Positions 14,451 through 57,380 of a DNA stretch of 64,000 nucleotides are shown here, piece by piece (position 1 is the stretch's first letter; the number at the start of each line of letters is the position of its first letter). The notes below the pieces were generated by a model that was not told the origin of the DNA, searched no databases, and saw nothing but the letters and a program-made list of their open reading frames with translations. Location of the stretch: contig JACPGI010000004.1 of NCBI GenBank assembly GCA_016182565.1, forward strand, positions 110,223 to 174,222. Reading direction: 5' to 3'. This DNA is from a candidate division WWE3 bacterium (GTDB lineage: Bacteria > Patescibacteriota > WWE3 > UBA101185 > UBA10185). Made by a program: the position numbers and the translations under genes.

Positions 14451-14464
14451 ATCCGCATTAATTT

Positions 14465-15175: not shown

Positions 15176-15198
15176 ATGAGATCTAAACAAAAATGAAA

Positions 15199-19203: not shown

Positions 19204-19208
19204 AAGTT

Positions 19209-20165
19209 TTACCACTCTACCGAATGCATAATCCGTTCAACATCTATATAGTTTTTTGCTGCCATTAATCTTTGTCTTAAATCATCAGCACCTTTAAACC
19301 CTTTCACGTAAACTTTGAAGAACTTTTTCATAATTTCAAAGTTTTTTGTTTTTCCCCATTTCTCATTGAAAAGTCTTGTATGTTTAATCAATAAATCTAA
19401 ATAGTCTTTTTTGCTGTGATTCACAGGGTTTTCTGATTTATCAAAAAGCCATGGGTTTTGGAATATACCTCTTCCAACCATAGCACCATCTATTCCATAC
19501 TTTTTATGTTTTAATACAATGTCCTTGTAGTCTATTACATCACCATTACCTATTATTAAGGTATCAAGTTTTAAGCTATCTCTTAACTTTACGGTTTTAC
19601 CAATCTCTCCCCAATCTGCAGTTCCTTTGGACATAGCCTGCGCGGTTCGTGCATGTATTGAAAGAGCGCTAAGTTCCTGACTCAATAAAAATGTAAGCCA
19701 CTCTTTAGTTTGTTTACTATCTGAGCCAAGCCTTGTTTTAACACTAAGTGGTATTTCCGGGGTGCTTTTTTTCACTGCATTTATGATCTCCTCCGCAAGT
19801 TTAAAATCATTTATTAGGGCTGCACCAGAATTTCGTCTCATAACACTTCTATCAGGACATCCCATATTAATATCAATTCCATCAAAACCAAGTTCTACTA
19901 TAAACTTTGCAGCCTTTTCATAATTTGCAGGAGTAGAACCCCATAACTGGGCAACTATTGGATGTTGATTTTTTGTAAATAGAAGTTTTTTTATTATGCG
20001 ATCATGGCCTTTAGAAAATATTGCGTCAGCACTTGTAAATTCAGTAAAAAAAACGTCGGGTTTTGCAGTGGTAGATATTATTTCGCGAAAAACAAGATCA
20101 GTCACTTCCTCCATTGGTGCAAGAATAGCAATAGGTCTTTTTAAGGTTTTCCAGAAATTCTTCAT
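19209..20165 (-). CDS. dus: tRNA-dihydrouridine synthase
   Basis: 'LAPMEEVTD', 'GFDGIDINMGCP' FMN/Dus signature. Confidence 0.85.
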   Translation of the reverse strand: MKNFWKTLKRPIAILAPMEEVTDLVFREIISTTAKPDVFFTEFTSADAIFSKGHDRIIKKLLFTKNQHPIVAQLWGSTPANYEKAAKFIVELGFDGIDINMGCPDRSVMRRNSGAALINDFKLAEEIINAVKKSTPEIPLSVKTRLGSDSKQTKEWLTFLLSQELSALSIHARTAQAMSKGTADWGEIGKTVKLRDSLKLDTLIIGNGDVIDYKDIVLKHKKYGIDGAMVGRGIFQNPWLFDKSENPVNHSKKDYLDLLIKHTRLFNEKWGKTKNFEIMKKFFKVYVKGFKGADDLRQRLMAAKNYIDVERIMHSVEW

Positions 20166-34796: not shown

Positions 34797-35939
34797 TTAC
34801 AGATGTGTGCCATCCATATTATAGTCATTTGTAGCAAGCGGCAGTGAAAAAAATACTTTTGTCCCATGTTCCAAGCTACTTTCCAGCCATATTTTTCCGT
34901 TATGTTGATCTATAATTTTCTTGCTTAGATAAAGTCCCAAACCTACACCGTTTTCCATATCTAGTGCTTTTTTAACTCTATAGAATCTTTCAAATAAAAA
35001 CTTAATATTTTCTCTTGGAATTCCTTTTCCCGAATCTTCAATCGAAACAGTGACTGTATCCTTTTCACGTATCAATAGGATTTTGATATAACCAGTCTCG
35101 GTAAATTTTATAGCATTATCAATCAGGTTCTCAAGAACTATCTTTATTCTTGTTGCGTCCCCCATCACATTTGGAAGTTTTATTGGCGAAGGTGCATATA
35201 TAACTTTAAGTTTTTTTGCATAAGCTTGGGGGCGGAGCTTTACTAATACCAGTTCTACAGCTTTATCAAGGTCCATTGGTACTAACTTCATTTCATATCC
35301 CCCACTTTGTATCTGGCCAAGCTCCAACAAGTTTTCTACAATGGACACCAAATCGTTCACACTTTTTACTGCTCCATCAAGAAAAGATTGTTCGTTGGTA
35401 TCAAGTTTTTGCTTTGTTGTTTCTTTTTCCAGAAAAGATAGGTACCCTTTTATTTCTGATAGTGGGGTTCGTAGGGTATGTCCGGCCATTGCAGTAAAAT
35501 CAAGTTTTGTTCGATCAAGATCAGCCTTTTGAAATAGATCTTCAAGAATTATAATGCACCCAACATCTATTGATTCGCCGCCCTTAATACGACGTGAGGT
35601 TATATTTATGGGCTTTATTTGGCCCCCCTTGTCTTGAAGCCCGATGTTGGTTTTTTGATAGACTACACCATCAATATCTACTGTTATGGTGGGGCAAAAT
35701 GTGTCAGTTGGAACAGACTGCTCGTTTTCTATAATTTTTAATGTTTCTGATATTGGGGTGCCAATCACATTGGTTGTACCAAATCCAGTTAGTCTTCCTG
35801 CAGCGTCATTAATAATGGACACATTTTGCTTTGTATCTACAACAATAACTCCCTCTTTTATGCTTGATATAACATTTCTTAGTTTTGTTTTTTCGATTTC
35901 GATTAGTGGCTGGTTGGAGGAATTAATACTGGGAAGCAT
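34797..35939 (-). CDS. PAS-domain sensor histidine kinase (cytoplasmic)
   Basis: H-box 'AGHTLRTPL', 'NLIDNAIKFT', 'DSGKGI', 'GVGLGLYLSKK'. Confidence 0.9.
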   Translation of the reverse strand: MLPSINSSNQPLIEIEKTKLRNVISSIKEGVIVVDTKQNVSIINDAAGRLTGFGTTNVIGTPISETLKIIENEQSVPTDTFCPTITVDIDGVVYQKTNIGLQDKGGQIKPINITSRRIKGGESIDVGCIIILEDLFQKADLDRTKLDFTAMAGHTLRTPLSEIKGYLSFLEKETTKQKLDTNEQSFLDGAVKSVNDLVSIVENLLELGQIQSGGYEMKLVPMDLDKAVELVLVKLRPQAYAKKLKVIYAPSPIKLPNVMGDATRIKIVLENLIDNAIKFTETGYIKILLIREKDTVTVSIEDSGKGIPRENIKFLFERFYRVKKALDMENGVGLGLYLSKKIIDQHNGKIWLESSLEHGTKVFFSLPLATNDYNMDGTHL

Positions 35940-36659: not shown

Positions 36660-36732
36660 CTGGGTCTATGTTTTTTAAGTATACTTTGGCTGGGCACTTG
36701 GGAACTTGTTGGAACTTTACTACTAGCTAAAA

Positions 36733-37323
36733 CTATCTGATTTTCTGCAAATCCTTTCCATATTTCTGAAATGCAAACTTTTCATAGGTTTTATCTTTCG
36801 GCAACTCTTCAAAATATCTTGTTAAACGAATCTTGGTCATGAAATCTTCTGATGACCTAATGCTTTTAGCTAATTCAGTTCCTACTAATTTGAACAAGTA
36901 ATTAAACGGGACATAGGTAGGTACTAGTATGTTCAGTAAATATCTGACTAATAAAAATAGTATTAATAAAGGAATAGATTTAAGAAAAAGGTATGCAATC
37001 AATACCCCAGTAGATACAGCATTGATATAAACTAACACACCAATATTCGGGGAGGTCATTAGTAATTGCAATAAATGCACTGGTTGAGCAAATTCCGATA
37101 ATTTTGCTATTCTAGCAACGGTTAAAGTAATTCTTTGATATTCAAAAGTTGTATTAAAAATTGAAATATCAAAATAGCTTAAGCAAATCATAACCCAAAG
37201 GGGTATTTCTTTTATATTGGGAAAAAGTACAGTAATTAGGAGTGCTAAACCAAAAGTAAGTATTGTAGCTATATTTGCGAGTATCATATCACTGATTTTA
37301 CTACCTTGAACCAATTCTAGCAC
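36733..37323 (-). CDS. 5-TM membrane protein (hypothetical)
   Basis: hydrophobic helices through residue ~130 then charged C-terminal tail. Confidence 0.45.
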   Translation of the reverse strand: MLELVQGSKISDMILANIATILTFGLALLITVLFPNIKEIPLWVMICLSYFDISIFNTTFEYQRITLTVARIAKLSEFAQPVHLLQLLMTSPNIGVLVYINAVSTGVLIAYLFLKSIPLLILFLLVRYLLNILVPTYVPFNYLFKLVGTELAKSIRSSEDFMTKIRLTRYFEELPKDKTYEKFAFQKYGKDLQKIR

Positions 37324-37326
37324 TAT

Positions 37327-37929
37327 TTAGTACAATTTTTTGTACGTTATTTCTTCTGTGCTAAGCATAAGAAAGATTGCACAGAATGAGTTTTTTGGAA
37401 TAATAATGCTTTTTTTAATGTAGTCGTAATTCACGAATATATTACCTATATCTGTACTATTAGGTTTATTTTTATCATAACTATTCGTAGGTACTACAAT
37501 CAAACTGACTTCTCCTGACCTATATCCTCCCGAAACCTTGTTGATATAAGTAACTAGGTCTTCATTAAATGTACCAAGGTTATGTATAGGAAATTTTTTA
37601 ACCTGAAACGCAAAAGCAGTTGGGTCATGTTTATCAATGGTACCTTTTACTAATCCAAAATCTACAGGTGTATTCTCATTTAGCATTTTTCTAATAATAT
37701 CGTTGGTTTCTTCAGGAGTTGGTTTAAAGTTTCTACTAAGGTTTCTTATATCATTCTTTATCTCAAAAGCTATACAAAAGGGAGAATTATAGCTCTTTTC
37801 TAAATTCCTTTTCATGTGTATGCTTACGGCGAATTCATAATCCTTGGAATTTATACCCTTTCCGTATTTTTCAAGAGCATTTATAAGGGCTTCTTCTGTT
37901 ACTAAAAAAACATTATTTTTATCGTACAT
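37327..37929 (-). CDS. hypothetical protein (first gene of a 3-gene minus-strand cluster)
   Basis: 200-aa ORF, 3-nt gap to downstream membrane protein gene. Confidence 0.45.
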   Translation of the reverse strand: MYDKNNVFLVTEEALINALEKYGKGINSKDYEFAVSIHMKRNLEKSYNSPFCIAFEIKNDIRNLSRNFKPTPEETNDIIRKMLNENTPVDFGLVKGTIDKHDPTAFAFQVKKFPIHNLGTFNEDLVTYINKVSGGYRSGEVSLIVVPTNSYDKNKPNSTDIGNIFVNYDYIKKSIIIPKNSFCAIFLMLSTEEITYKKLY

Positions 37930-38005
37930 AGTAGTATTAACTAATTTAAATAAGTTTACGCTTCATAATGTTTACTGGCTGAAAGTTGGGAACTTGTTTA
38001 TATAT

Positions 38006-38467
38006 TTATAAGTTTGCAATCTTCTTGGTAAACTCAGCTGGATACTTAACTTTAAGTAATTCCGAAGCTTCATTAGGAGTAAACCATGAAAACTCTACAT
38101 GTTCCTCACTTAGCATTATATTGGGGTTTTTCTTAAGTTCGCACAGATATATACCCAGAATTAACCCAATAGTATCAGTTCCTTGGGGTATTCGGATATT
38201 GGATACAACCATATCAAGTTTGGTAAATGATTTAATCTCTGTAATACCTGTTTCCTCTTCAACCTCTCTCTTTAATGTTTCTTCTATGGTACAACCTTTT
38301 TGCACTCTTCCGCCTGGTATATCCCAATAAGCTCCAAGTGAGTGATTCGATAACTTTTCTAAGTTAACCTTAAGTAAAAGTATTTCACCTTTAGAATTTC
38401 TTATTAAAGCTTTTATACCTAAGTGATACGTTTCTTCTTTCATAGTTTTAAAATGCATGAACCTCAA
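38006..38467 (-). CDS. Nudix hydrolase
   Basis: Nudix box 'GGRVQKGCTIEETLKREVEEETGI'. Confidence 0.8.
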   Translation of the reverse strand: MRFMHFKTMKEETYHLGIKALIRNSKGEILLLKVNLEKLSNHSLGAYWDIPGGRVQKGCTIEETLKREVEEETGITEIKSFTKLDMVVSNIRIPQGTDTIGLILGIYLCELKKNPNIMLSEEHVEFSWFTPNEASELLKVKYPAEFTKKIANL

Positions 38468-38996
38468 TTACATGGTCTAAACGTGGAGCTATTTTTGTTC
38501 TCATAAAATCTTTATACAATTGTTCCTCGAACTCCTTAATATAATCTATCTTAAAACCAGCTTTTTCTAAATGTTCCTTTATAGTTTCAGGTGTGTGGAA
38601 ATATCTCACTCCAGTACCAATTATATTCTTGTTTTCGTCTCTGTAGAAAACTTTTGTTAATCTAGTAATAGGGTCATATTCAATATCAGGTTTATTTCTA
38701 TCAACATTTTTCTCTGACCTAACAACAATAAATAAATGACCTGTTGATTTTAAAGATTTTTTAAAATTATTTAAAACATTATCCAATTCTTGAAAACTTA
38801 GATAATGAAGAACTAATCTAGCATAAATATAATCAAAGTAATTAGCTGGATAGGGATACTCTTTTGTTAAATCTTCTATTTTAGTCTCTATTTGTTTATC
38901 TAAACCTAATTCTTTGATGTTTGCGATTGAGAAATCAAGACCTTCTGTATCTATTGTTGTAGCGATTATTTTAGAATTTAAATTAGCTTTCGCCAT
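38448..38996 (-). CDS. SAM-dependent methyltransferase-like protein (N-terminal motif I region very short or truncated)
   Basis: 'KSTGHLFIVVRSE' methyltransferase motif; only ~20 in-frame codons available upstream before a stop. Confidence 0.5.
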   Translation of the reverse strand: MAKANLNSKIIATTIDTEGLDFSIANIKELGLDKQIETKIEDLTKEYPYPANYFDYIYARLVLHYLSFQELDNVLNNFKKSLKSTGHLFIVVRSEKNVDRNKPDIEYDPITRLTKVFYRDENKNIIGTGVRYFHTPETIKEHLEKAGFKIDYIKEFEEQLYKDFMRTKIAPRLDHVIEVHAF

Positions 38997-39236
38997 TCTA
39001 ATCTCTGCAAAACCACCTGAACTATACCAGGACTTAATATATTTAAATCTGTATCTCTAACAAAGAAATTCCATGTTCCTCACTTATTGAAGGTTTTGCA
39101 CCTAACTGTTTTAATTGTTCTTCGATAGTAACCACCATACGCTAATAATATCATAGAAACTTCCCCAACACATAAAAGCAAACAACCACAGCGTAAGCTG
39201 TGATAAAATCCAACCAGTGTTGGGGAGTTTCGGATT

Positions 39237-39980
39237 ATGCAAATCGCTGATATAACAATCATAAGCAGGGGTGAACCACCTGAGCTTATAGAACAACCTA
39301 ATAAAAGCACCATTAGCCTACTTTCAATATTGTTAAATAGTAGGTATTTTAATGATTTTGTAACTTCATTTATTGATAAATATGCTATAGAGCAGGAAGA
39401 TATTAAACCTAACCTTAGCAAAGTTATAAATGACCTAGAAAACTGCTCTAAATACCCTGAAATTAGCACTGTAGTAGATGTTTTGGGGTTATCTAGTGAC
39501 TTTGTACCTGATTTTTACTTATTAACCAAATATAGAGCATTTAGAGATATTGGTAACTACTTTTCTATAAACTATAGAAGCACAGTATGGCATTTAAAGA
39601 TTGATTCAGAGGAAGCGATAAAAGAAAAAAGAGAGATAAGTGGGATTATATTCAAAAACAAAGTATCCAAAAGGGAAATGCTTAATTGGGTAAATGAAAA
39701 TTGGGAATGGGTCGAACCAAACATGGCGGAATTACCTGTAAATCCCTTTGTGATTACTGATTTTAAGGACATAGAACTCGCCAGCGAGATATACGACCTA
39801 AATAAACAAGGTATGAAACCTACACAAATACTTAAAGCTTTAAGTACTAAATACCAAGATAATCAGCAAATATACGATAATCTATCGCTTGAACTTGTTA
39901 AAAACAAACTTAAACGCTTTAGAAATCTACTAAACAAAAGAGAACCTTGGTTTCAGAAAACTGAAATTATATACGAATAG
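39237..39980 (+). CDS. module-associated hypothetical protein X1 (paralog of 45481-46272)
   Basis: N-terminus 'MQIADITIISRGEPPELIEQP' vs 'MGIDEIKILKNLNPIELTPEK'; 'REMLNWVNENWEWVEP' vs 'KQMVLDWVGKHWEETIE'. Confidence 0.65.
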   Translation: MQIADITIISRGEPPELIEQPNKSTISLLSILLNSRYFNDFVTSFIDKYAIEQEDIKPNLSKVINDLENCSKYPEISTVVDVLGLSSDFVPDFYLLTKYRAFRDIGNYFSINYRSTVWHLKIDSEEAIKEKREISGIIFKNKVSKREMLNWVNENWEWVEPNMAELPVNPFVITDFKDIELASEIYDLNKQGMKPTQILKALSTKYQDNQQIYDNLSLELVKNKLKRFRNLLNKREPWFQKTEIIYE

Positions 39981-40043
39981 GGCCACTAAAAAATATTTTA
40001 CTGATACCTAAGCTTTACTGTTTTAGCTTTATTCTCCCTCGTA

Positions 40044-40223
40044 ATGAGGGATTTAATCAAACCCACAACTGAAGATATTGAGCAAATAAAAACCTTTTTT
40101 AAAGAAAGATATGGGGTTTTATTAACTGATGAAGAAGCAAAAGAAGCGTTTATCTCACTTTATTACTTAGGAAAAGCGCTATACAGATATAACAACTTAT
40201 CAGAGAGGATTTTAAATGGTTGA
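40044..40223 (+). CDS. conserved small module protein (59 aa; paralog of 46300-46482); not in supplied ORF track
   Basis: hand translation 'MRDLIKPTTEDIEQIKTFFKERYGVLLTDEEAKEAFISLYYLGKALYRY...' aligns with 'IPTKEELQHLKCFLEAKFGVAFTNSEVLESYYSLTHLGKAIYLF'. Confidence 0.6.
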   Translation: MRDLIKPTTEDIEQIKTFFKERYGVLLTDEEAKEAFISLYYLGKALYRYNNLSERILNG

Positions 40224-41316
40224 AATCCCCTCTTTTTTTGACTTATCTACTCCAATTGACCCCACCGACGAGTTGCGGAAGCAACCGTCGGATACTCCCA
40301 AGGAAGTATTTAATCCAGAAGTAAAAAGTACAATTGAGTATAAGGGTTTTGCTAGAGATACTGAAATAGTCGGAAATCCTGCTTTATTATATTTAACTAA
40401 TTATAGAACATTTCAACAGAAGCTTGATAGCAACCTAAAACAATATATTAAGGAAACAAAATTAGAAATGAGGGGTAAATTATTTGAGTTAAGAAACGCA
40501 CCTCCTCACTTTTGTGGTTTATATAAATCTGCGAAACTCAGTGTTTCTGGAAATAAACTTTTACAAGTAATATTCTCAAAAATACCTTGTAATTCTTGGT
40601 GTTGTCCAGTTTGTAGTATAAGAAAAGCAATAAGATTAAAATACAGGTTAAGAGAGATTATTTTACTAAATGATTTAGAGTATTTTATTACCTTTACTCT
40701 AAATCCCTCTAAAATTCCAAGTGTGTATAAGAATGATACGCACAAGTATATTACAAAACTTTTCAACCATTTTTTAACTGTACTACGAAGAAAAAAGTAT
40801 AAATATTTTCATGAAAATAGTGGTAGGTATTTTTACTTTGATTTAACCAAAGCAAAAGATAAGCTTAAATATGTTTGGGTTATTGAGTTTCAAAAGAAAA
40901 CGCATAACGCACATATGCATATTCTAACCAACCAATATTTACCAGCAGTTATATTACGCAAAATATGGCAAGATGTTGGTGGTGGTACTCAAATGCGTTT
41001 GGAAAAGGTCAAATCTAAAAAAGGTATAAGTAACTACATAACTGACTATTTGGTTAAGGGTATAAAAGATACACCTACAAACTTGAAATTGGGTTATGGT
41101 TTCAAGTATTTTGAGCGTAGATATAGTGTTAGTAACTCATGCACTAAACCTGAAAAGAAAATGAAAGAGTTGTTTAAATTACTACCAAACGAGTTAAAAG
41201 AAAAAGAATTAATGAAGCAAAATTTGGGTTGGATTGTAAAAGAGTTATATAATGCGGATAACGATTATTTCAAAGTTGTATTTGATAGTAATTCTCCTGC
41301 ACCACAAAACTTATGA
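40216..41316 (+). CDS. HUH-superfamily rolling-circle replication initiator (Rep), copy 1
   Basis: motif I 'YFITFTL', motif II 'HNAHMHIL' (HUH), motif III 'YITDYLVK' (catalytic Tyr). Confidence 0.75.
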   Translation: MVEIPSFFDLSTPIDPTDELRKQPSDTPKEVFNPEVKSTIEYKGFARDTEIVGNPALLYLTNYRTFQQKLDSNLKQYIKETKLEMRGKLFELRNAPPHFCGLYKSAKLSVSGNKLLQVIFSKIPCNSWCCPVCSIRKAIRLKYRLREIILLNDLEYFITFTLNPSKIPSVYKNDTHKYITKLFNHFLTVLRRKKYKYFHENSGRYFYFDLTKAKDKLKYVWVIEFQKKTHNAHMHILTNQYLPAVILRKIWQDVGGGTQMRLEKVKSKKGISNYITDYLVKGIKDTPTNLKLGYGFKYFERRYSVSNSCTKPEKKMKELFKLLPNELKEKELMKQNLGWIVKELYNADNDYFKVVFDSNSPAPQNL

Positions 41317-42833
41317 ATACTGATTTAAAATATATTATTTATTGTAGAAAATCCTCGGAAGAAGAAAACCGACAAGCACAATCTCTTGATACTCAAAAAA
41401 CTACACTCTTAAAGTATGCACATGATAATAAACTTGATTTTGTTTGTATTTATGAAGAATCTAAAAGTGCTAAAGATGATAATAACCGAATGTTTTTTGA
41501 TGATATGCTTTCTAAACTTAAATCTGGAGAAGCAAATGCAATATTAGTACAGCATTTGGATAGGTTAAGCAGAAATAGAATTGATACAGGTGAATTAATT
41601 AAGTTATTCCAAGAGGGTAAATTAAAAGAGATTAGAACCCCATATAAAGCTAATAATACGATTTATGATTTGTTTAGTATGGATTACGAGTTTATTAACG
41701 CTATTCATTATTCTGCAAGGTTATCAATTCGAGTTAAAGAAGGTATTGATACAAAATTAAGAAAAGGTGAATTTCCTGGTCCTCCTAAACTTGGTTATAT
41801 AACTGTTAATAAAAAACATACTCCTGACCCAGAAAGAACACCTTTTATCAAAGAAATATTTGATTTATATACTGGTAGCAGAGTTTCTATTGAGATTATT
41901 GCTGATACGCTTTTTGATAAAGGTTTTAGAACTCTAAGCGGTAAAAAAGTATATACCTCTGCAATAGCACGAATACTTCAAGATACCTTTTATACAGGTA
42001 AGTTTTTGTATAAAGGAACTGTTTATCAAGGTATTCATAAACCAATAATATCAGAACAGCAGTTTAAACTTGCTAATGAAATAAGGGTAGGTAAAAGCAA
42101 ACCTCGACCTAAAACTGATTTGGATTTTTTGTATAGAGGTTTTTTAAAATGCAATTATTGTGGTTGTGCTTTAACTCCAACTCTTAAAAAGGGTAAATAT
42201 GTATATTACTTCTGTACCAATGGTAAAAACATGTGTGAACAGCACAAAGATTATCTTGGTGAAGGTGATTTAACCCCTAAAGTAACCAGTATTTTCCAAA
42301 ACTTCATAATTGATAAAGATATGGCGACCAAATCCCTTGAGGTTTACAAGAAACAAACCATACAAGCATACGAAGATAAAGTACAGGTTAAAAAGTCACT
42401 AGAAACCCATGTAGAAGCTTTAAACGATAAGTTAGATAAGCTATTAGATACTTACCTAGAAGAAAAAGTAGATAGCAGTACATACAGCAAGAAACAAACA
42501 AAGATAAAACAGGAAATTAAGCAAATTGAAGATAGAATATCAAAACTTAATAAATCACCAAAAACCACTCTGGAACTTTTGGATAAGTTTAAACAGCAAT
42601 GTTTTTCTCTTGGTGAAGTGTATGAACATGGAGATAAAGAGGTTAAGAAAGATTTGTTAAATTCCGCACTCTGGAACTTTTCTATGCTTAATGGAGAAAT
42701 AGCGTCAGTACAATATAAACTACCTTATAAATACATGAATGAAGCTTCTAAAAGTGGTGATTTTTCAATTTGGCTGGGGAACAGGGATTCGAACCCCAAT
42801 ACCTGGGACCAAAACCCAGAGTCCTACCGTTAG
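41313..42833 (+). CDS. large serine recombinase (resolvase catalytic domain + recombinase domain + zinc ribbon + coiled coil), copy 1
   Basis: 'YIIYCRKSS' catalytic Ser region, 'LDRLSRN', Cys cluster 'CNYCGC...YYFCTNGKNMCEQH'; C-terminus reads through antisense of tRNA-Gln. Confidence 0.85.
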   Translation: MNTDLKYIIYCRKSSEEENRQAQSLDTQKTTLLKYAHDNKLDFVCIYEESKSAKDDNNRMFFDDMLSKLKSGEANAILVQHLDRLSRNRIDTGELIKLFQEGKLKEIRTPYKANNTIYDLFSMDYEFINAIHYSARLSIRVKEGIDTKLRKGEFPGPPKLGYITVNKKHTPDPERTPFIKEIFDLYTGSRVSIEIIADTLFDKGFRTLSGKKVYTSAIARILQDTFYTGKFLYKGTVYQGIHKPIISEQQFKLANEIRVGKSKPRPKTDLDFLYRGFLKCNYCGCALTPTLKKGKYVYYFCTNGKNMCEQHKDYLGEGDLTPKVTSIFQNFIIDKDMATKSLEVYKKQTIQAYEDKVQVKKSLETHVEALNDKLDKLLDTYLEEKVDSSTYSKKQTKIKQEIKQIEDRISKLNKSPKTTLELLDKFKQQCFSLGEVYEHGDKEVKKDLLNSALWNFSMLNGEIASVQYKLPYKYMNEASKSGDFSIWLGNRDSNPNTWDQNPESYR

Positions 42834-42844
42834 ACGATTCCCCA
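42771..42844 (-). tRNA. tRNA-Gln (anticodon UUG), CCA encoded
   Basis: hand-folded cloverleaf: acceptor UGGGGAA/UUCCCCA, anticodon loop UUUUGGU, T-loop UUCGAAU, discriminator G; resembles bacterial tRNA-Gln. Confidence 0.8.
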
Positions 42845-42996
42845 TCAAAATAGTCAAAAAATGAAATTAACTATCGACAAACTGAATTATAGCAAACCAT
42901 ATGTAAAAGTATAAACCTAAGCTACACGTATTAAACTCAGATCGAGCTGGATAACTGTGGTCTTAAGTTATCCAGTTCAAAGATTATGTGTAGGAA

Positions 42997-43557
42997 TTAG
43001 GGTTGGATTGGAGTTATTTTGAGGCTAGTGCTTTCAACTTCACACTTTGCATCAATCGAAATTGCGACCTTAATCACAATCGGCCAACGCTCCCACATTA
43101 AAGTGGTCTCAAAGTATTGTTGACCATCAGGAAACGTTTTCAGCACAGGCCACCGGGTAACCTCAATAGTATCTTGAGACTTGTACCCGTCTCCTACATG
43201 GTACAAACTTACCCATGCTTTAGGTGCACTTTTACCGCACCATTCGTTGGCATCCTGGTAGTTTCCACCGATATACCACCCCAGAGCATTTTTTGTAGCT
43301 GAATATTGCCTGTGAACCCCATCTGTATCAGAGACCTCAACAAATGGAAGTTCAACTGTACCTTCAACTGCACCAATTATTCCGACTGCATAGGGTATTG
43401 TATTCGGAGTTGGGCTATTGAATGCCTCAGCATAATACCTGTATCTGTCCTCAAGTGTTTGCTGGTCCGGCATCGACAACATCGTGGCAATACATCCCGC
43501 CGCTACTAAAATAAGTACCAACACAGTACCAATCCCTTTCAATACATTTTTATTCAT
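42997..43557 (-). CDS. lipoprotein (hypothetical), GC-elevated
   Basis: lipobox-like 'LVAAGC'; ~43% GC vs ~32% background. Confidence 0.55.
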   Translation of the reverse strand: MNKNVLKGIGTVLVLILVAAGCIATMLSMPDQQTLEDRYRYYAEAFNSPTPNTIPYAVGIIGAVEGTVELPFVEVSDTDGVHRQYSATKNALGWYIGGNYQDANEWCGKSAPKAWVSLYHVGDGYKSQDTIEVTRWPVLKTFPDGQQYFETTLMWERWPIVIKVAISIDAKCEVESTSLKITPIQP

Positions 43558-43758
43558 TGTTCCTCTCCCTTGTTACATCATATTTTGATTTCCGGCGAAT
43601 TATATCTTATAGTATGCCAAATTACAATTATTATAGGTCATTAATAAAATTGTTTAATTTCGGGAAAATTTCTAAACAGGATATTTAATTAATAAAAGTT
43701 GGAGTGAGTATTTGGTGGAGCATTTGGGACTATGTTGGAACTAATTCCCTAGTACTCG

Positions 43759-44259
43759 CTACCCATAAAGTTTAATCATTCTATCAATATTTTCACTTAA
43801 GGTATCTAATTCAACCTCTTTTCTTCTAGTATCAACATTGCTAATATCCCATAAGTTAATAGGTTCATATTTTCCCTCACTTGTTTTAGTGAATTGAGTA
43901 CCATAAATCTGTTGTTTTCCTTGTGCTAACAATACTCTATCTTTTAAGTATGCATAGTCACGTTTATTTACGTCCTCCATATTCTTTTCCATTAATTCTA
44001 AATATTTTTCTTGTAAATTTATATCCGGAGAATGTTGGACTAATTTCCAAGATTGGAATGAACTTTTCTTTCCAACCTTACTTATTGTAGGTAAACCAAA
44101 ATCCTTAAGTACCTCTGTAATAAACTTGGTGCTTTTCTCGTCAATTTCCTTCATTTGTTCAAGAAATTTCTCGTCCTTAGAGTTAATGTAATTAGTTCTA
44201 ATCTTAGTATCTTCTTCAAAGAGGGATTGTAATGTTGAAACTAGGTAATTTATTTTCAT
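43759..44259 (-). CDS. hypothetical protein
   Basis: 166-aa charged helical ORF. Confidence 0.45.
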   Translation of the reverse strand: MKINYLVSTLQSLFEEDTKIRTNYINSKDEKFLEQMKEIDEKSTKFITEVLKDFGLPTISKVGKKSSFQSWKLVQHSPDINLQEKYLELMEKNMEDVNKRDYAYLKDRVLLAQGKQQIYGTQFTKTSEGKYEPINLWDISNVDTRRKEVELDTLSENIDRMIKLYG

Positions 44260-44287
44260 ACAATAAAGTGGAACTCTCGCAAAAAAT

Positions 44288-44722
44288 TTACAAACTCAAA
44301 CGAGAACATACTTCAAGAAATTTACTTTTAATATCCTCAAATGCTAAATGTTTAAGCACTTCCTCTTTTGATAACCACTTCAAATCAACAATTTTTGCTT
44401 GTATTTTTGGGGAAGCAGCTAAATTAAAATTTCCAGCGTAGTAATAGGTTATCCCTTTCTTTCCTGCTCTATCAGGTTTTTCATTACCATAGATAAATTC
44501 ATTAGTAATACCCGTATCCGATAGTTTGTAGTCAGTATTACTTAATCCTAATTCCTCAAAAATTTCTCGTTGCAAACCTGCTTCAATAGTACTATCGTTA
44601 TCTTCTATTCTTCCCCCAACAAAAGTCCAAAATGAATTTTTATGTTGTAACAGCAAATATTCCACCCTTTTATCAGGGTTAATTTTATAGATTATTACAA
44701 CTGCACCTTTTATTAAATCCAT
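44288..44722 (-). CDS. Nudix hydrolase
   Basis: Nudix box 'GGRIEDNDSTIEAGLQREIFEELGL'. Confidence 0.75.
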   Translation of the reverse strand: MDLIKGAVVIIYKINPDKRVEYLLLQHKNSFWTFVGGRIEDNDSTIEAGLQREIFEELGLSNTDYKLSDTGITNEFIYGNEKPDRAGKKGITYYYAGNFNLAASPKIQAKIVDLKWLSKEEVLKHLAFEDIKSKFLEVCSRLSL

Positions 44723-44762
44723 GGTGAGATTATAGCACCAACAAGGTTTTTTCGGATATTAC

Positions 44763-45480
44763 GTATCGGTAGTGGTCACCTCCCACCACTTAAATGGAAT
44801 GACGTCCTCCCCGGATAGCACTATGTTTGTCCGGGGTTTCCTTTGCTCCGCTTCTCATGAGAAGTCGTCAGTAACATCGTAACCTAAATCAGAATCATTT
44901 TGCTTACGTATGTATTTGCGTATCTGATCCTCATTGAGCCCTATTGTAGAGACAAAGTACCCCACACTCCACACACCACTATCACCGTACATCTTATCTA
45001 TAAATTTAAACTTAGTTCTAAGGGTGGAACTTGATCTTGATTTCAACTCACGAACTACGTCGGAGATACAATCAGTCGGAGGAAACTCTATTCTCATGTG
45101 TATATGGTCATTGTCTGTATTGAGTTGAAATATGAACCAGGTGGGGTGTGTGCGCAGTGTTTTGTAAAAGCTTTTGACTAGTTCCAAGCGAACATAGGGC
45201 TTTAGTATCTTCCTACCATACTTTGTTCTCCAAACAATGTGATACTGAGTTTGGTATGTGCTATGACTTAGTTGACGAATCCTCATGATGACAGAATAGC
45301 ACTTCGTGCTATTCCCATTCGTCCATGAACTGCGTTCGCAATTCCTCGACCCTTGCTCACTTGTTCATGGTTTGCTGGTATGGATTAGAAAAAGCACACA
45401 CGTAGTGTGTGCTAAAATCCTCCCACTGTGGTGGGAAGTGATTGGATTTCCACCGAAGCATGGGGTACACTCCAACCACT
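44763..45480 (-). mobile_element. IS200/IS605-family insertion sequence (TnpA only, IS200 group), ~0.72 kb; boundaries approximate
   Basis: Y1 HUH transposase gene flanked by GC-rich subterminal palindromes ('agtggtcacctcccaccact', 'cccactgtggtggg'); inserted 3' of a TTAC; GC well above host. Confidence 0.7.
44855..45286 (-). CDS. tnpA: IS200-type Y1 transposase TnpA
   Basis: 'HIVWRTKYGRKIL', HUH 'HIHM', catalytic Tyr region 'GYFVSTIG'. Confidence 0.85.
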   Translation of the reverse strand: MRIRQLSHSTYQTQYHIVWRTKYGRKILKPYVRLELVKSFYKTLRTHPTWFIFQLNTDNDHIHMRIEFPPTDCISDVVRELKSRSSSTLRTKFKFIDKMYGDSGVWSVGYFVSTIGLNEDQIRKYIRKQNDSDLGYDVTDDFS

Positions 45481-46272
45481 ATGGGGATAGATGAAATAAA
45501 AATTCTTAAAAACTTAAATCCTATTGAACTAACACCTGAAAAAGAAATATCAGAACAAACTTGGATTGCACTAGGTAAGGTTCTTAACGATGATAGAACA
45601 TATGTTTTTATTGAAGATTTTAGAAAATCCTATGGTTTACCTAAAAATGGTTTGGATATAACAAAATTTGTTGGTAAAAACTTCAAAGAATTAGGTTTAG
45701 ATAACTATTTAGGAATGGGTTTATCCGTTATTTCCGCTACTCTTTCAGAACGAACAGGATTAGGTAATGCTTTTAACGACCAATTGTTACTACTCCTGTA
45801 TTTTAATGCTTTCTTAGATTGTAACCATTACAATAAATTACCTAGTTTTGAAATTAATTTTGTTGCAGGTAAAGAACAAATATCAAATGCTTGTTGGAAA
45901 TATCCTCATGAAATAGGTGCTATTTTAATACCTGTTTTTGCTAACAAACAAATGGTGCTTGATTGGGTTGGAAAACATTGGGAAGAAACCATTGAAAAAC
46001 AACTGGATAGCAAAATCTACGATAATCCTTTTGCGGAAACTACTCTTCAGTGGAGTAAAATAGCAACCGAAATAATTTACTACAGAGATAAGGAAAAGAA
46101 ACAATTTAAAGAAATATCTACAATACTTTTTGATAAATATGGCAAAGAATATGCTGTTGTTGCTGATGAAGATTGGGCTCGTGCTATATATCACCAATAT
46201 AAAGAACATTTAAAGTTGTGGGAACAATCAAAGCGAAAGCAAAAATCAGCGAAAACTCTTACTCAAAAATAA
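45481..46272 (+). CDS. module-associated hypothetical protein X2 (paralog of 39237-39980); track start 45442 is a TTG inside the IS end
   Basis: homology of N-terminus beginning at ATG 45481 with X1. Confidence 0.6.
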   Translation: MGIDEIKILKNLNPIELTPEKEISEQTWIALGKVLNDDRTYVFIEDFRKSYGLPKNGLDITKFVGKNFKELGLDNYLGMGLSVISATLSERTGLGNAFNDQLLLLLYFNAFLDCNHYNKLPSFEINFVAGKEQISNACWKYPHEIGAILIPVFANKQMVLDWVGKHWEETIEKQLDSKIYDNPFAETTLQWSKIATEIIYYRDKEKKQFKEISTILFDKYGKEYAVVADEDWARAIYHQYKEHLKLWEQSKRKQKSAKTLTQK

Positions 46273-46299
46273 CCTCCTAAAATCTACGATTTCCAGTAA

Positions 46300-46482
46300 A
46301 TGCTGGAAATCAAAATACCCACAAAAGAAGAATTACAACATTTAAAGTGCTTTTTAGAAGCAAAATTCGGTGTTGCTTTCACCAATAGTGAAGTTTTGGA
46401 AAGTTATTACTCCCTAACACACCTTGGTAAAGCAATATATCTGTTTTGTAAACAACAGGAGGTTAAAAATGAAACCTCTTGA
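46300..46482 (+). CDS. conserved small module protein (60 aa), copy 2
   Basis: paralog of 40044-40223. Confidence 0.6.
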   Translation: MLEIKIPTKEELQHLKCFLEAKFGVAFTNSEVLESYYSLTHLGKAIYLFCKQQEVKNETS

Positions 46483-47422
46483 AACACAAGAAGAAATTGT
46501 TAAATATTTTGGTTCACCACTTGAAGAACCTGAACTTCACACCGAGTTATATTACAAACCAAAAATATCCCAAACTGATATTTTAATAAAAGAAATCCTC
46601 GCCAACAAGCATAGCGACGAAAGTCGCATGCTTTCCCCCTTTACTCTACTAGATAGTACCGTCGTAATTCCTCCAGTTATTGATAAGTTTAAAATTGCTT
46701 ATTACCAAACAACAACGGAATATGGGAATTATGTTGATATTTATATTCATGAAAAACCCATAATTAAAGCAAAAAACCTAAAATCCCGAAATGTACGAGG
46801 AGGTAGGTACAAGGAAAATGAGGAAAAACCAGATAGGGGTAACGAATATCGCAGAAGAAACTCAATCAAAGCATTAAACATGATAAAACAACTAACACTT
46901 CAAAATTTCACTAAAGAAAATGTGAAACTGCTAACCCTTACTTTTGGAGATTGTGCTTTTGATATCAATAATCCAAGGATTTGTGACCCCTTATTTAGTA
47001 TTTTTATGTGTAAATTACGAAAGTTATTTCCTGATTTAAAGTATCTAGGTGTTTTAGAGTTCCAAAAACGAGGTGCTGTTCATTACCATGTTTTGTGTGA
47101 TTTACCCTATATCAAAAAAGAAGAAATAGCAGAACTTTGGGGATATGGTTTTATTGATATTAGAAAACCTGATTATGTTATTGGAACTTACTTGTATAAA
47201 TATCTATCAAAGGATTTAAACGACGAAAAATTAAAAGGTGTTAGGGTATATTTTCACTCTAAAAACCTTGAAAAACCCGTTAATAAAACTGGAGTACCTG
47301 CATTTGATGTAATTTCCAGATTTCAAAATTCAGAAATACACTTTACTAACCAGTATACAAATAAATATAATGGGGGTACTGTAAAATACTTACAGTTTAA
47401 AGTTTCTCCTACCCAAACATAA
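46469..47422 (+). CDS. HUH-superfamily rolling-circle replication initiator (Rep), copy 2
   Basis: motif I 'LLTLTFGD', motif II 'VHYHVLCD', motif III 'YLYKYLSKD'; ATG 46469 preceded by 'aggagg' SD (track gives upstream start 46424). Confidence 0.75.
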   Translation: MKPLETQEEIVKYFGSPLEEPELHTELYYKPKISQTDILIKEILANKHSDESRMLSPFTLLDSTVVIPPVIDKFKIAYYQTTTEYGNYVDIYIHEKPIIKAKNLKSRNVRGGRYKENEEKPDRGNEYRRRNSIKALNMIKQLTLQNFTKENVKLLTLTFGDCAFDINNPRICDPLFSIFMCKLRKLFPDLKYLGVLEFQKRGAVHYHVLCDLPYIKKEEIAELWGYGFIDIRKPDYVIGTYLYKYLSKDLNDEKLKGVRVYFHSKNLEKPVNKTGVPAFDVISRFQNSEIHFTNQYTNKYNGGTVKYLQFKVSPTQT

Positions 47423-47429
47423 AAGATAT

Positions 47430-48890
47430 ATGAATAATTGCTTTATTTATTGCAGAAAATCTACAGATTGTGCTGATAAACAAGAACAATCCCTTGAAAC
47501 CCAAGAGAGAATTTGCTTGGAAACTGCAAAGCGATTTAATCTTAGTGTTGTTGATACCATTCTTGAAGCAAAATCTGCTAAAGATGCTGGAAACCGACCC
47601 AAATTTGATAACTTAATTTATCGCATTCGTAATAAAGAAGCAGATATTATTATTACTTGGGATATTGATAGATTAGCAAGAAACTTAACAGAAGCAGGTT
47701 TATTACAACAACTTTATGAAACTGGATTAATAACAAAAATAATCACTGAACATGATATTTATGCTTCTGATAGGGATTTTATGAATATTGGTCATGAGTT
47801 TGTTGATGCTTCTAATTATTCCCGAAAACTTCGTTCTAAAGTTAAAGATGGTACTGATACCAAACTTAAAAGAGGTGAAATTCCGGGTTCTTCAAAAATT
47901 GGTTACTACATAGTTGATAAGAAAATGAAACCCGACCCAGATAGAGCACCTTTTGTAAAACTTGCTTTTGAAATGTATACAGACGGTAAACACTTAAGAG
48001 AAATAACCAAAACCTTATATGAAATGGGTTTTAGAACCAAAAAGGGTTACAAGGTTTATCTAAACACTATAAACAAAATGCTAAAGCGAATTGATTACAC
48101 TGGTACATTTGAGTACAACAAACAACTATATCAAGGAAGTTACGAACCACTTGTTTCAATGGAATTATTTGACAAGGTTCAAAAACTGATTGTTAAAAAC
48201 AACATTCCAAAATCCCAGAAACACTACTTTCTTTACCGAGGTTTTATTAAATGTGGGCATTGTGGTTGCATGCACACTGCTACAACTAAAAAAGGAAAAT
48301 ATATTTATTACTACTGCACTAATTCCAAAAGAATTTGTAAACAGCACCAAAAATATATTGAGGAACAGGATATGCATGATTTATATAGCAATAAACTTTC
48401 AGAACTCCCAATAGATACCGAGATACTAAATCAATCTTACGAGTTATATGCTAAAAATTACCTACAGCAGTATAAAGAGGTGGAAAATCAGAAAACCATT
48501 GTTAAAAAGCAACTGGTGAGTGTAGAAACCAGTATAAACAGGTTAGTTGATATTTATATTAGGGGAGAAATACAACAGGAGGTTTATTCTCGAAAATACA
48601 AGCAACTGGTTTTAGAAAAAGAAACCCTCCAAAACACACTTATCAAACTGGAAACTCAAAAACCTGAAGAAACCTTGGAACTTATTAAAAAATTCAAAGA
48701 TTATTGTTGTACCTTGCAAAACACCTACTCCAAGGGAAACAATGGGGTGAAAGAAGAAATCTTAAAAGCAGTGTGTTGGAACTTTTCAATCAATAATGGA
48801 AAAATCGCTTCAATACAATACAAAAAACCATTTGATATGATTGCAAAACTACCTAAAAATGCTGATTTTGTTCAATGGTGGGCGGTATAG
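47430..48890 (+). CDS. large serine recombinase, copy 2
   Basis: 'FIYCRKST', 'IDRLARN', zinc ribbon 'CGHCGC...YYYCTNSKRICKQH'; terminal 'QWWAV*' codons overlap antisense of tRNA-Val CCA. Confidence 0.85.
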   Translation: MNNCFIYCRKSTDCADKQEQSLETQERICLETAKRFNLSVVDTILEAKSAKDAGNRPKFDNLIYRIRNKEADIIITWDIDRLARNLTEAGLLQQLYETGLITKIITEHDIYASDRDFMNIGHEFVDASNYSRKLRSKVKDGTDTKLKRGEIPGSSKIGYYIVDKKMKPDPDRAPFVKLAFEMYTDGKHLREITKTLYEMGFRTKKGYKVYLNTINKMLKRIDYTGTFEYNKQLYQGSYEPLVSMELFDKVQKLIVKNNIPKSQKHYFLYRGFIKCGHCGCMHTATTKKGKYIYYYCTNSKRICKQHQKYIEEQDMHDLYSNKLSELPIDTEILNQSYELYAKNYLQQYKEVENQKTIVKKQLVSVETSINRLVDIYIRGEIQQEVYSRKYKQLVLEKETLQNTLIKLETQKPEETLELIKKFKDYCCTLQNTYSKGNNGVKEEILKAVCWNFSINNGKIASIQYKKPFDMIAKLPKNADFVQWWAV

Positions 48891-48952
48891 GGATCGAACC
48901 TATGACCTTTCGGATGTAAACCGAATGCTCTAACCAGCTGAGCTAACCGCCC
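48876..48952 (-). tRNA. tRNA-Val (anticodon UAC), CCA encoded
   Basis: acceptor GGGCGGU/ACCGCCC, D-arm GCUCAGCUGGUUAGAGC, anticodon loop UUUACAU, T-arm AUAGGUUCGAUCCCUAU. Confidence 0.85.
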
Positions 48953-55035: not shown

Positions 55036-55111
55036 TGGTGGGAAGAGTGGGAATCGGACCCACATAGCCGGTTTTTCAGACCGGTGCCTTGACCAACTTG
55101 GCTATCTTCCC
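55036..55111 (-). tRNA. tRNA-Phe (anticodon GAA)
   Basis: acceptor GGGAAGA/UCUUCCC, anticodon loop CUGAAAA, T-arm GUGGGUCCGAUUCCCAC, CCA encoded. Confidence 0.8.
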
Positions 55112-55127
55112 GCTTTGCATAATTAAA

Positions 55128-55203
55128 TGGAGCGACGGACCGGACTCGAACCGGCGACCTCCTCCTTGGCAAGGAGGCGTTCTACCAACTGAACTACCGT
55201 CGC
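55128..55203 (-). tRNA. tRNA-Gly (anticodon GCC)
   Basis: acceptor GCGACGG/CCGUCGC, anticodon loop UUGCCAA, discriminator U, CCA encoded. Confidence 0.85.
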
Positions 55204-55239
55204 ATAAACAAAAACTATTTTAACATGTAAAAAATTATT

Positions 55240-55326
55240 TGGTGGGCGAGACAGGACTTGAACCTGCACAGGTTTTACCCCACAACGACCTCAACGTTGC
55301 GCGTATGCCAATTCCGCCACTCGCCC
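55240..55326 (-). tRNA. tRNA-Leu (anticodon GAG), type II long variable arm
   Basis: UGGCGGAAUUGG D-region typical of Leu, anticodon loop UUGAGGU, 87 nt. Confidence 0.8.
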
Positions 55327-55388
55327 ATGCAAACATGTGATATTTTATCATGTTTTCTTAAATTCAGAATCTATATTTACAATATGGT

Positions 55389-55475
55389 TGGTGCCAGAGA
55401 TGGGATTTGAACCCATACGCCTTTTACAGCACTGCCTTCTGAAGACAGCGAGTCTGCCAATTTCTCCACTCTGGC
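55389..55475 (-). tRNA. tRNA-Leu (anticodon CAG), type II
   Basis: acceptor GCCAGAG/CUCUGGC, anticodon loop UUCAGAA, long variable arm, 87 nt. Confidence 0.8.
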
Positions 55476-55511
55476 ATAAGTTTTTAGTATTAAGCGGCTA
55501 GAAATAAAATT

Positions 55512-55586
55512 TGGTGAGGGCGGTGGGATTCGAACCCACGACACACGGATTAAGAGTCCGATGCTCTACCACTGAGCTACGCCCCC
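55512..55586 (-). tRNA. tRNA-Lys (anticodon CUU)
   Basis: D-arm GCUCAGUGGUAGAGC, anticodon loop CUCUUAA, T-arm GUGGGUUCGAAUCCCAC. Confidence 0.75.
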
Positions 55587-57304: not shown

Positions 57305-57380
57305 TGGTGCCCCCAGAGGGATTCGAACCCCCGACCCCTTGTTCCGAAGACAAGTGCTCTATCCGCTGAGCTATGGAGGC
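57305..57380 (-). tRNA. tRNA-Arg (anticodon UCG)
   Basis: acceptor GCCUCCA/UGGGGGC, D-arm GCUCAGCGGAUAGAGC, anticodon loop CUUCGGA. Confidence 0.8.

Follow-up and report, generated by a model that had tools for sequence, protein, structure and literature searches.

Two neighbouring integrated elements of a WWE3 bacterium that pair a rolling-circle initiator with a large serine recombinase at tRNA genes

A stretch of 64,000 nucleotides from the genome of a candidate division WWE3 bacterium (Patescibacteriota; GenBank assembly GCA_016182565.1, contig JACPGI010000004.1, positions 110,223 to 174,222), hereafter referred to as the window, contains two small integrated elements, A and B, at two neighbouring tRNA genes. 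Each of them carries the same four core genes, i.e., a gene for a lineage-specific protein (X), a small open reading frame (ORF), a rolling-circle replication initiator (Rep), and a large serine recombinase (LSR) whose reading frame runs into an antisense tRNA gene. We consider it likely that A and B are two independent members, diverged long ago, of a single family of small integrative rolling-circle elements. They are best read as integrative rolling-circle replicons related to the replication and integration module of inoviruses of the candidate phyla radiation (CPR), and possibly as satellites.

Core genes, cargo, and limits of the two elements

The ORF list, ARAGORN, and Rfam were used to place the genes and tRNAs of both modules, which are the following (all positions without a locus name are those of the window):

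39237-39980, + strand: X_A, 247 aa, paralogue of X_B
40044-40223, + strand: small ORF S_A, 59 aa, its 3' end overlapping the start of Rep_A
40216-41316, + strand: Rep_A, HUH rolling-circle initiator (PF23343, phrog_3419, motifs)
41313-42833, + strand: LSR_A, large serine recombinase (Resolvase, Recombinase, and zinc-ribbon domains)
42771-42844, - strand: tRNA-Gln(UUG) (ARAGORN; Rfam 53.7 bits)
45442/45481-46272, + strand: X_B, 276 aa from TTG at 45442 or 263 aa from ATG at 45481
46300-46482, + strand: small ORF S_B, 60 aa
46469-47422, + strand: Rep_B, 317 aa from ATG at 46469, ORF open from 46424 (PF23343)
47430-48890, + strand: LSR_B (Resolvase, Recombinase, and Zn_ribbon_recom domains)
48876-48952, - strand: tRNA-Val(UAC) (ARAGORN; Rfam 71.9 bits)

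The four pairs of proteins are homologous but clearly diverged. BLASTP identities were 26% between X_A and X_B (E 2e-8), 35% between S_A and S_B (E 2e-13), 33% over 80 aa between the Reps (E 2e-4), and 37% over 482 aa between the recombinases (E 4e-120). The nucleotide alignment shows no more than short stretches of 71-74% identity between the modules, which are therefore old paralogues and not the products of a recent duplication. G+C content is about 33% throughout, with no compositional contrast.

Both recombinases matched PF00239 (E 1e-17 and 4e-17) and scored above the curated cut-offs of PF07508 and PF13408, a combination of Resolvase, Recombinase, and Zn_ribbon_recom domains that identifies them as large serine recombinases. 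In the LSR alignment (A1), the serine motif YxRxS (Y10, R12, and S14, together with D83-R84-L85-x-R87) and the zinc-ribbon cysteines C280, C283, C301, and C308 are invariant. The LSR profile was also matched to the structure of the C-terminal domain of the A118 integrase (4KIS/6DNW; 4KIS with E 1.3e-13 over residues 160-426), and identities to characterised phage integrases are only 24-29%. Likewise, both Reps matched PF23343 (REP_ORF2-G2P), with 34.6 bits (E 2.4e-8) for Rep_A and 59.0 bits (E 5.8e-16) for Rep_B against a cut-off of 27.8 bits. Their HUH motifs read FITFTL, HMHIL, and YITDYLVK in Rep_A (alignment A3) and LLTLTF, HYHVL, and YLYKYLSK in Rep_B (alignment A4), so that motif I, HUH, and YxxxY are present in both; in the latter alignment H205, H207, Y241, and Y245 are invariant. 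PHROGs assigned the two recombinases to the integrase class (LSR_A to phrog_95, 2e-78) and the two Reps to the rolling-circle initiators (Rep_A to phrog_3419, 3e-12). Rep_B is identical to the NCBI protein HYV31_02075 (candidate division WWE3 bacterium), and close Rep homologues (56-85% identity) derive from WWE3 genomes and metagenomes.

Comparison with relatives revealed how far the elements actually extend. Element A spans 36687-42778 (6.08 kb; target tRNA-Gln; 8-bp repeat TGGCTGGG) and element B spans 43713-48881 (5.16 kb; target tRNA-Val; 6-bp repeat TGGTGG), the direct repeats that bound elements of this kind being 6-9 bp long. Both have the same layout from left to right: attL with its P' half-site, variable cargo, a nested hairpin, X, the ORF of ~60 aa, Rep, and LSR. 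The attachment sites and cargo genes are:

36687-36716, + strand: attL of element A, 8-bp core TGGCTGGG followed by the P' half-site TGGCTGGGCACTTGGGAACTTGTTGGAACT, which mimics a tRNA 3' end
36733-37323, - strand: cargo ORF of A, 196 aa, no family
37327-37929, - strand: cargo ORF of A, 200 aa, no family
38006-38467, - strand: NUDIX cargo gene of A (Pfam)
38448-38996, - strand: cargo gene of A with an S-adenosylmethionine (SAM) methyltransferase fold (Pfam)
42771-42778: attR core of element A, TGGCTGGG on the + strand, 3' end of tRNA-Gln
43713-43742, + strand: attL of element B, core TGGTGG plus the P' half-site TGGTGGAGCATTTGGGACTATGTTGGAACT
43759-44259, - strand: DUF6624 cargo gene of B (Pfam)
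44288-44722, - strand: NUDIX cargo gene of B (Pfam)
48876-48881: attR core of element B, TGGTGG on the + strand, 3' end of tRNA-Val

The core of attL in A recurs at the 3' end of tRNA-Gln (42771) and its P' motif GGGAACTTGTTGGAAC matches the left ends mapped in relatives. For attL of B, identity with the P' sites mapped in L163 and L168/L154 is 90-94% (loci of relatives are given by their L numbers). Together with positions 36687 and 43713 of the window, P' homologues were located in L002 (7940), L016 (4292), L163 (4885), and L008 (187). As follows from the mapped ends, the spacer of ~0.87 kb between A and B (42845-43712), which contains an ORF at 42997-43557, would be host DNA.

Other placements were rejected. 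A left boundary at the start of the inter-element homology, i.e., at the hairpin region that immediately precedes X and has the conserved sequence CTTCCCACCAC (C(T)TCCCACCAC...GTGGTGGGAAG), was ruled out because the mobile unit of the close relative with the X protein P0064 (see below) reaches beyond its cargo gene to the P' site, which places the hairpin inside the element. The hairpin arms were also dismissed as att half-sites or as a folded single-stranded attP like that of CTX-phi, because double-stranded DNA is what serine recombinases cut, and because the genuine repeats are situated elsewhere. A P'-like site at 35687 falls inside a histidine-kinase ORF (34797-35939) and is probably due to chance. 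A nested model in which B carries tRNA-Gln and A is inserted inside B was dropped after attL of B was found at 43713. Logan contig ends, considered as evidence of empty or occupied sites, break inside the tRNA body and were uninformative.

A first-pass annotation of the window, made from the sequence alone, had described two modules with the same gene order, pairwise homologous products, HUH Reps and serine recombinases, each module terminating at a different tRNA. All of this was borne out by the gene and tRNA predictions, protein comparisons (26-37% identity), HMM searches, and nucleotide alignment, with the LSR ORFs ending in antisense tRNA-Gln(ttg) and tRNA-Val(tac). Its coordinates are valid for the conserved cores only; the elements themselves start ~2.5 kb (A) and ~1.7 kb (B) further left, and the cargo genes, the left att site, and an IS200-type insertion in B (about 44800-45389) had been left out. 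The modules had also been called tandem, which they are not: they are two separate insertions at neighbouring tRNA genes, ~0.87 kb apart, and not an array at one site. New with respect to that description are the larger elements with cargo, the insertion in B, the kinship with an inovirus module, and an integrase gene that spans attP at a tRNA 3' terminus.

A separate observation concerns a 27-nt inverted match, 96% complementary, between positions 38896-38922 in the methyltransferase cargo gene of A and 45678-45704 in the X gene of B. Both of its copies encode ...KELGLD... A chance match of this length is not to be expected within 11 kb, and it may have been left by recombination or gene conversion between the elements.

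A family of related elements and its mobility

A Rep profile scan of species-representative genomes yielded 80 loci and was followed by censuses that combined profiles with ARAGORN. At least 30 loci were identified in which an LSR lies downstream of Rep and overlaps an antisense tRNA with its 3' end, most of them in Patescibacteria genomes assembled from metagenomes. Their tRNA targets include Gln(ttg/ctg), Asp, Asn, Glu, Ser, Ala, Ile, Val, Trp, and Gly. The complete order of X, small ORF, Rep, and LSR was found in L002-L005, L010-L013, L016, L096, L097, L154-L164, and L169. The suspicion of the first-pass annotation that these modules represent a family of small integrative elements was thus correct, and the arrangement is not universal core synteny, as a 4.69-kb relative occurs in three tRNA genes with three left flanks.

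This relative, here called P0064 after its X protein (85% identical to X_B), contains a HAD/kinase-like cargo gene left of the conserved region. The unit is 99.8-99.9% identical in tRNA-Leu(tag) (L154-156/158), in tRNA-Ile (L157), and in another tRNA-Ile (L159). The three left flanks are unrelated and the unit is bounded by the 7-bp direct repeat TGGTGGG. At its left end, the flank passes directly into TGGTGGGCCATTTGGGACTATGTTGGAACT, with a P' half-site that resembles a tRNA 3' end. Near-identity in three tRNA genes, together with the flanking repeat, demonstrates recent mobility of this element and places the crossover at the CCA/acceptor end of the tRNA. On the basis of these comparisons, the mobility of the family as a whole is well supported.

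Other loci bear further marks of site-specific recombination. The P0024 element has the same sequence over 5,170 nt (100% identity) in L008 and L006, and the two diverge exactly after ...TGGCTG, from where L008 (5165-5200) continues into tRNA-Gln and L006 (5864-5900) into the P'-like sequence GGGGAACAAGTTCGAAC. This suggests that the L006 junction is an attP-type hybrid derived from tandem accretion of elements at tRNA-Gln. The junction with tRNA-Gln stands in one assembly and that with the P'-like site in others, in which this site is followed by a 94-aa ORF and a gene for a cadherin/peptidase of 3577 aa. In L018 an LSR 3' remnant abuts a P' site, and in L168 (reverse strand, 6667-7472) and L165 (772-1663) a P' site is followed by ~0.7 kb with a single ORF and then by tRNA-Ile or tRNA-Val(cac). 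The latter units contain neither X nor Rep nor LSR and may be either decayed or non-autonomous elements that can be moved in trans. Plausible P' sites upstream of Rep were also found in the distant loci L016, L018, L049, L074, and L094 by a crude and unsystematic search for mimics of tRNA ends.

Cargo differs between otherwise homologous elements. Besides the genes of A and B listed above, it comprises an MBL-fold, Apyc1-like protein (L002), a HAD-kinase (L154), an rRNA adenine dimethylase (L016), a HExxH peptidase-like protein (L163), and HEPN/AbiV (L006-L009). L161 matches A at 88% identity from 39154 onward but differs in cargo, and the start of its contig falls inside the P' motif; the segment between P' and the conserved region is therefore exchangeable. 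Among the core proteins, X had no Pfam or PHROG match, has no P-loop as read from the sequence, and showed no profile-profile relationship with the ORFs of ~260 aa that occupy the same position in other CPR elements. With a profile of the small ORF, further small ORFs were recovered in front of Rep in L006-9, L027, and L057; the small ORF gave no informative PHROG match and nothing usable among solved structures. That X or the small ORF acts as a regulator or recombination directionality factor is speculation.

Some further observations were made among more distant loci. In a human faecal virome contig of 44% G+C (L170, MT837677.1, 835-2403; the gut contig is unannotated), an LSR 29% identical to LSR_A terminates inside an antisense tRNA-Leu(cag), so this layout is not confined to the CPR. 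Rep homologues without an LSR occur in L021, L023, L030, and L044 (Clostridia) and in L079, L082, and L088 (Bacilli and a contig labelled Muribaculaceae), with an antisense tRNA-Ser or tRNA-Gly 1-2 kb downstream, which suggests that in Firmicutes the Rep family is paired with a different (perhaps tyrosine) integrase. In L008 (WWE3, Rifle), the intact tRNA-Val(tac) is immediately followed by a 43-nt copy of its 3' half (13020-13062), which looks like the scar of a different integrative element that carried a long tRNA repeat. Around its target tRNA-Ile, L002 has stretches (3900-6300 and 14000-19500) in common with L168, broken in L002 by LAGLIDADG homing-endonuclease ORFs. We read them as probable rRNA genes with introns, a known trait of the CPR.

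Site recognition and the conserved hairpin

Each LSR ORF terminates inside the antisense tRNA gene, which provides the final 21 codons of LSR_A and the final 5 codons of LSR_B. Conservation in the LSR alignment ends at an invariant W, downstream of which the sequence is antisense tRNA and varies from locus to locus. The codon of this residue, TGG, is the antisense of the tRNA CCA, as was established by base-by-base reading of four loci (42771-42773 in A, 48876-48878 in B, L002, and L008). When P' was compared with the tRNA side of attB (B') in seven elements, the proximal 10 nt were 83% identical in register. The distal match peaked at an outward shift of +5 bp (44% versus roughly 12-37% at other shifts), in a comparison of sequences that are kin and of events that are not independent. 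After this shift, the T-arm GAAC of B' aligns with GTTGGAAC of P'. The shift is suggestive of the offset of zinc-ribbon motifs between attP and attB known for serine integrases, which was proposed from the structure of the A118 integrase (PMC3783163). In the three P0064 insertions the left arms of attB are completely different, which argues that recognition takes place mostly on the tRNA side and would explain the range of tRNA targets. A 13-mer at 48774-48786, TGTTGGAACTTTT (CWNF in LSR_B), was also seen to be one base off the distal P' motif TGTTGGAACTTTA; by chance alone the window should contain ~0.08 such matches, and it may be a coincidence.

In the mechanism that we propose, attP consists of the 3' end of the LSR gene together with P', and the LSR recombines it with a tRNA gene at the 3' terminus of the latter. 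The crossover would fall within the CCA, the discriminator, and the first acceptor bases, i.e., TGGTGG(G) or TGGCTGGG on the + strand, and the enzyme would mainly read the acceptor end and T-arm on the tRNA side of attB. The tRNA would be left intact on integration, so that closely related integrases could use several different tRNA genes. The occurrence of the same element in three tRNA genes lends indirect support to the idea that these LSRs catalyse attP x attB recombination. For element A the predicted junctions are ...GATTTTTCAATTTGGCTGGGCACTTGGGAAC (attP_A) and ...TTAAGTATACTTTGGCTGGGGAACAGGGATTCG (attB_A), and for element B ...GATTTTGTTCAATGGTGGAGCATTTGGGAC (attP_B) and ...GGAGTGAGTATTTGGTGGGCGGTATAGGG (attB_B). 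Terminal repeats indicative of circularity were found in none of the contigs with Rep and LSR.

The hairpin between the divergently oriented cargo and core genes, and the insertion sequence (IS) that interrupts it in B, are located as follows:

39160-39227, + strand: nested hairpin of A, outer stem CTTCCCCAACAC/GTGTTGGGGAG, inner stem CCACAGC-GTAA-GCTGTGG
44779-44799, + strand: left arm of the hairpin of B, CCTCCCACCACTTAAATGG, one mismatch to the family motif
44800-45389, - strand: IS200-type insertion in B with Y1 transposase gene tnpA at 44855-45286, limits approximate to a few bases
45393-45438, + strand: remainder of the hairpin of B, inner hairpin at 45393-45413 and right arm GTGGTGGGAAG at 45428-45438

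This hairpin is present in all elements that carry X, in which it folds as single-stranded DNA (ssDNA) with -15 to -20 kcal/mol and z-scores of -4.4 to -5.7. The values are -15.2 kcal/mol (z -4.4) for A and -18.5 kcal/mol (z -5.4) for B when folded without the IS. In seven B-type copies the inner stem is 100% paired and three pairs show compensatory changes on both sides, while the A-type copies (A of the window and L161) follow the same design with a different sequence. These features make it a candidate replication origin or other single-strand signal. The IS encodes tnpA only (PF01797, E 4e-27), is present as a single copy in the window, and splits the hairpin of B between the left arm and the inner hairpin, an insertion point that was defined with the uninterrupted homologues of L002, L096, L097, and L154. 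It probably disables the hairpin structure. Since elements of the IS200/IS605 family target single-stranded DNA, its position may reflect an ssDNA stage of the element. In the excised circle, Rep would presumably nick at or near the hairpin, and the element would be maintained by rolling-circle replication through an ssDNA intermediate. Elsewhere in the window, at 55036-55586 and 57305-57380, there are six further, unoccupied tRNA genes, including a tRNA-Phe whose 3' end TGGTGGGAAG matches the core of B-type elements and is the same as the right arm of the hairpin.

Several results weigh against the reading of A and B as integrative rolling-circle elements. No excised circle, attP junction, or empty attB was recovered for the two elements of the window, and one metagenome scan with the hairpin pattern returned no matches. 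The Rep profile found no usable relative among solved structures. X had no detectable homologues outside close WWE3 relatives and its AlphaFold model is poor (mean pLDDT 46, with only two C-terminal helices confident). The P arm, i.e., the 3' coding end of the LSR, lacks a clear symmetry with P', and the kinship among the aligned ends reduces the value of the +5-bp shift. In element B the P' core differs from the tRNA at position 7, and the IS lies in the putative origin. B may therefore be disabled by the IS and, with the mismatch added, inert.

Kinship with inoviruses and comparison with known systems

In IMG/VR and at many genome loci, relatives of the Rep are encoded directly downstream of a Zot/pI gene. 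Two of these loci (L102 and L105) also contain an LSR, together with genes for a LexA-like repressor, a coat-like protein, and a large adsorption-like protein. Judging from their gene content, the Zot-bearing Rep relatives are inovirus-like prophages, many of them from Patescibacteria and some with an LSR and a tRNA, so that the notion of ssDNA-phage-like elements raised in the first-pass annotation proved apt for the more distant relatives. CPR inoviruses and serine recombinases in inoviruses have already been catalogued (Roux et al. 2019; PMC6813254). A Zot profile of 70+ relatives had no match among the window ORFs of at least 45 aa or in any of the elements with X, and no PHROG or Pfam match to structural genes was obtained for the core proteins of A and B, the cargo ORFs having been scanned with Pfam only. 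The elements of the window lack Zot and are therefore not inoviruses, although they share the inovirus replication and integration module. As Zot/pI and coat genes are missing, they would be plasmid-like, or satellite-like derivatives or relatives of that module. Moreover, the Zot-less elements with abutting Rep and LSR genes resemble one another more closely, in Rep as well as in LSR, than they resemble the Zot-bearing ones.

Satellites of inovirus-like phages are a refinement of this reading rather than an exclusion of it. According to this idea, the elements would consist of the replication and integration module plus a packaging or origin hairpin, and would travel from cell to cell as ssDNA packaged by a helper inovirus of the same host, in parallel to RS1 and TLC-phi with CTX-phi and to pDolos with phage Dolos. 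The assignment of Rep to the G2P/ORF2 family, the adjacency of distant Rep relatives to an upstream Zot/pI gene in inovirus-like prophages (some with LSR and tRNA), a conserved hairpin that fits an ssDNA signal, and the landing of an ssDNA-inserting IS200-type element in that hairpin are all consistent with it, and a rolling-circle plasmid has been described as an inovirus satellite (bioRxiv 10.1101/2023.11.28.569023). However, the 64-kb window contains no helper inovirus, no close relative with X has a Zot gene nearby, no sequence in common with a helper is known, and the Zot-less Rep-LSR elements form a group of their own. We regard helper-dependent satellites as possible but doubtful.

Alternatively, A and B could be decayed inovirus prophages, that is, immobile cores left after deletion of the morphogenesis and coat genes. 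The existence of relatives with Zot, the IS in element B, and the short remnants with P' and one gene beside tRNA genes in L168 and L165 would agree with such a scenario. Yet more than ten independent loci have the same compact architecture, with four intact ORFs and conserved ends, none of the elements with X contains Zot fragments, and the P0064 element is nearly identical at three different tRNA genes, which makes decay a very unlikely explanation.

A further alternative is that A and B are integrative and mobilizable elements (IMEs), in which the HUH protein would act mainly as a relaxase and the excised circle would be mobilized by a conjugative system, as proposed for streptococcal IMEs. 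Known IMEs do pair serine or tyrosine integrases with relaxases akin to rolling-circle initiators, and they use tRNA or 3'-end targets (PMC5704250). Size and cargo pattern are similar too, but neither the ORF list nor Pfam revealed any gene for a coupling protein or for type IV secretion, be it in the elements or elsewhere in the window, and the Rep family is one of phage and plasmid initiators (PF23343), whose nearest plasmid relatives are rolling-circle plasmids of 1.5-7 kb. WWE3 and other CPR genomes are not known to carry conjugation systems. We consider mobilization of this kind very unlikely, and we prefer to read A and B as integrative rolling-circle replicons related to the inovirus module.

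A more far-reaching proposal, which we consider unlikely when all its parts are taken together, would make the elements an undescribed and widespread class of inovirus-derived satellites or plasmids of the CPR. Their LSR clade would recognise generic tRNA features, namely the CCA/acceptor end and the T-arm, and could use many tRNA genes as landing sites. Since the integrase gene would span attP, integration would swap the C-terminal tail of the LSR: the predicted C terminus of the excised form is a conserved tail, W-x-x-x-W-[DE]-x-V-G-T, and that of the integrated form an arbitrary antisense-tRNA sequence. Such a tail swap could contribute to the control of directionality.

Mobile elements of CPR bacteria are barely characterised, and the elements described here define a compact and recurrent type with mapped ends, a cargo slot, and core genes. 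Comparative evidence indicates that an LSR clade targets the 3' end of several different tRNA genes. Serine integrases serve as tools in genome engineering, where a clade with a tiny core that reads conserved tRNA features might be of practical interest. With the genes in their cargo slot (NUDIX, methyltransferase, MBL-fold Apyc1-like, HEPN, and HAD-kinase), the elements may spread functions in defence or counter-defence among these bacteria.

The combination of a Rep with a serine integrase had at first been judged unusual. On the one hand, there are precedents in phiRSM (PMC4471427), IMEs (PMC5704250), and CPR inoviruses (PMC6813254). On the other hand, large serine integrases at tRNA genes are indeed rarely documented: a 2020 survey stated that their use of tRNA genes was previously unreported, found it for only 14 of 297 candidates, and called for proof (PMC7192596). 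The inovirus phiRSM of Ralstonia (Inoviridae) resembles the window elements in having a rolling-circle Rep, a serine recombinase, and an att core at a tRNA 3' end (13 bp of tRNA-Ser; PMC4471427). Unlike them, its recombinase is small, of the resolvase/invertase type, and it is a complete phage with Zot/pI and coat genes, whereas A and B have an LSR (Recombinase plus zinc ribbon) whose ORF crosses att, and no morphogenesis genes. The CPR inovirus-like prophages (L102, L105, L032-L054), whose hosts are mostly Patescibacteria, share the Rep family (33-44% identity) and a downstream LSR that runs into an antisense tRNA. They differ in their Zot/pI, coat-like, and adsorption-like genes and in a gap of 0.3-0.5 kb between Rep and LSR, while in the window elements Rep abuts the LSR, structural genes are lacking, and X is lineage-specific.

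RS1 and TLC-phi (Vibrio cholerae) and pDolos (Shewanella) are likewise small replicons with an HUH Rep and without morphogenesis genes. They coexist with inoviruses and are packaged by them, a dependence that is putative for A and B; RS1 and TLC-phi differ from these by integrating at dif via host XerCD, and pDolos by not being integrative. IMEs of Firmicutes and actinomycete integrative and conjugative elements (AICEs) are similar in their small size, in the pairing of a recombinase with a protein of the rolling-circle initiator type, in their frequent use of tRNA 3' ends, and in their variable cargo. However, they rely on conjugation functions, their tRNA-targeting members use tyrosine integrases, and their Rep families are Rep_trans, Rep_2, and RepSA. 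The AICE pSAM2, for instance, has RepSA plus an integrase at tRNA-Pro. Finally, the integrases of A118/LI, TP901-1, Bxb1, and phiC31 resemble LSR_A and LSR_B in domain set, short core repeat, and 5-bp distal offset; in contrast to them, the LSRs of the window and their relatives target the 3' ends of several tRNA genes, and their predicted attP overlaps the stop region of the integrase gene itself.

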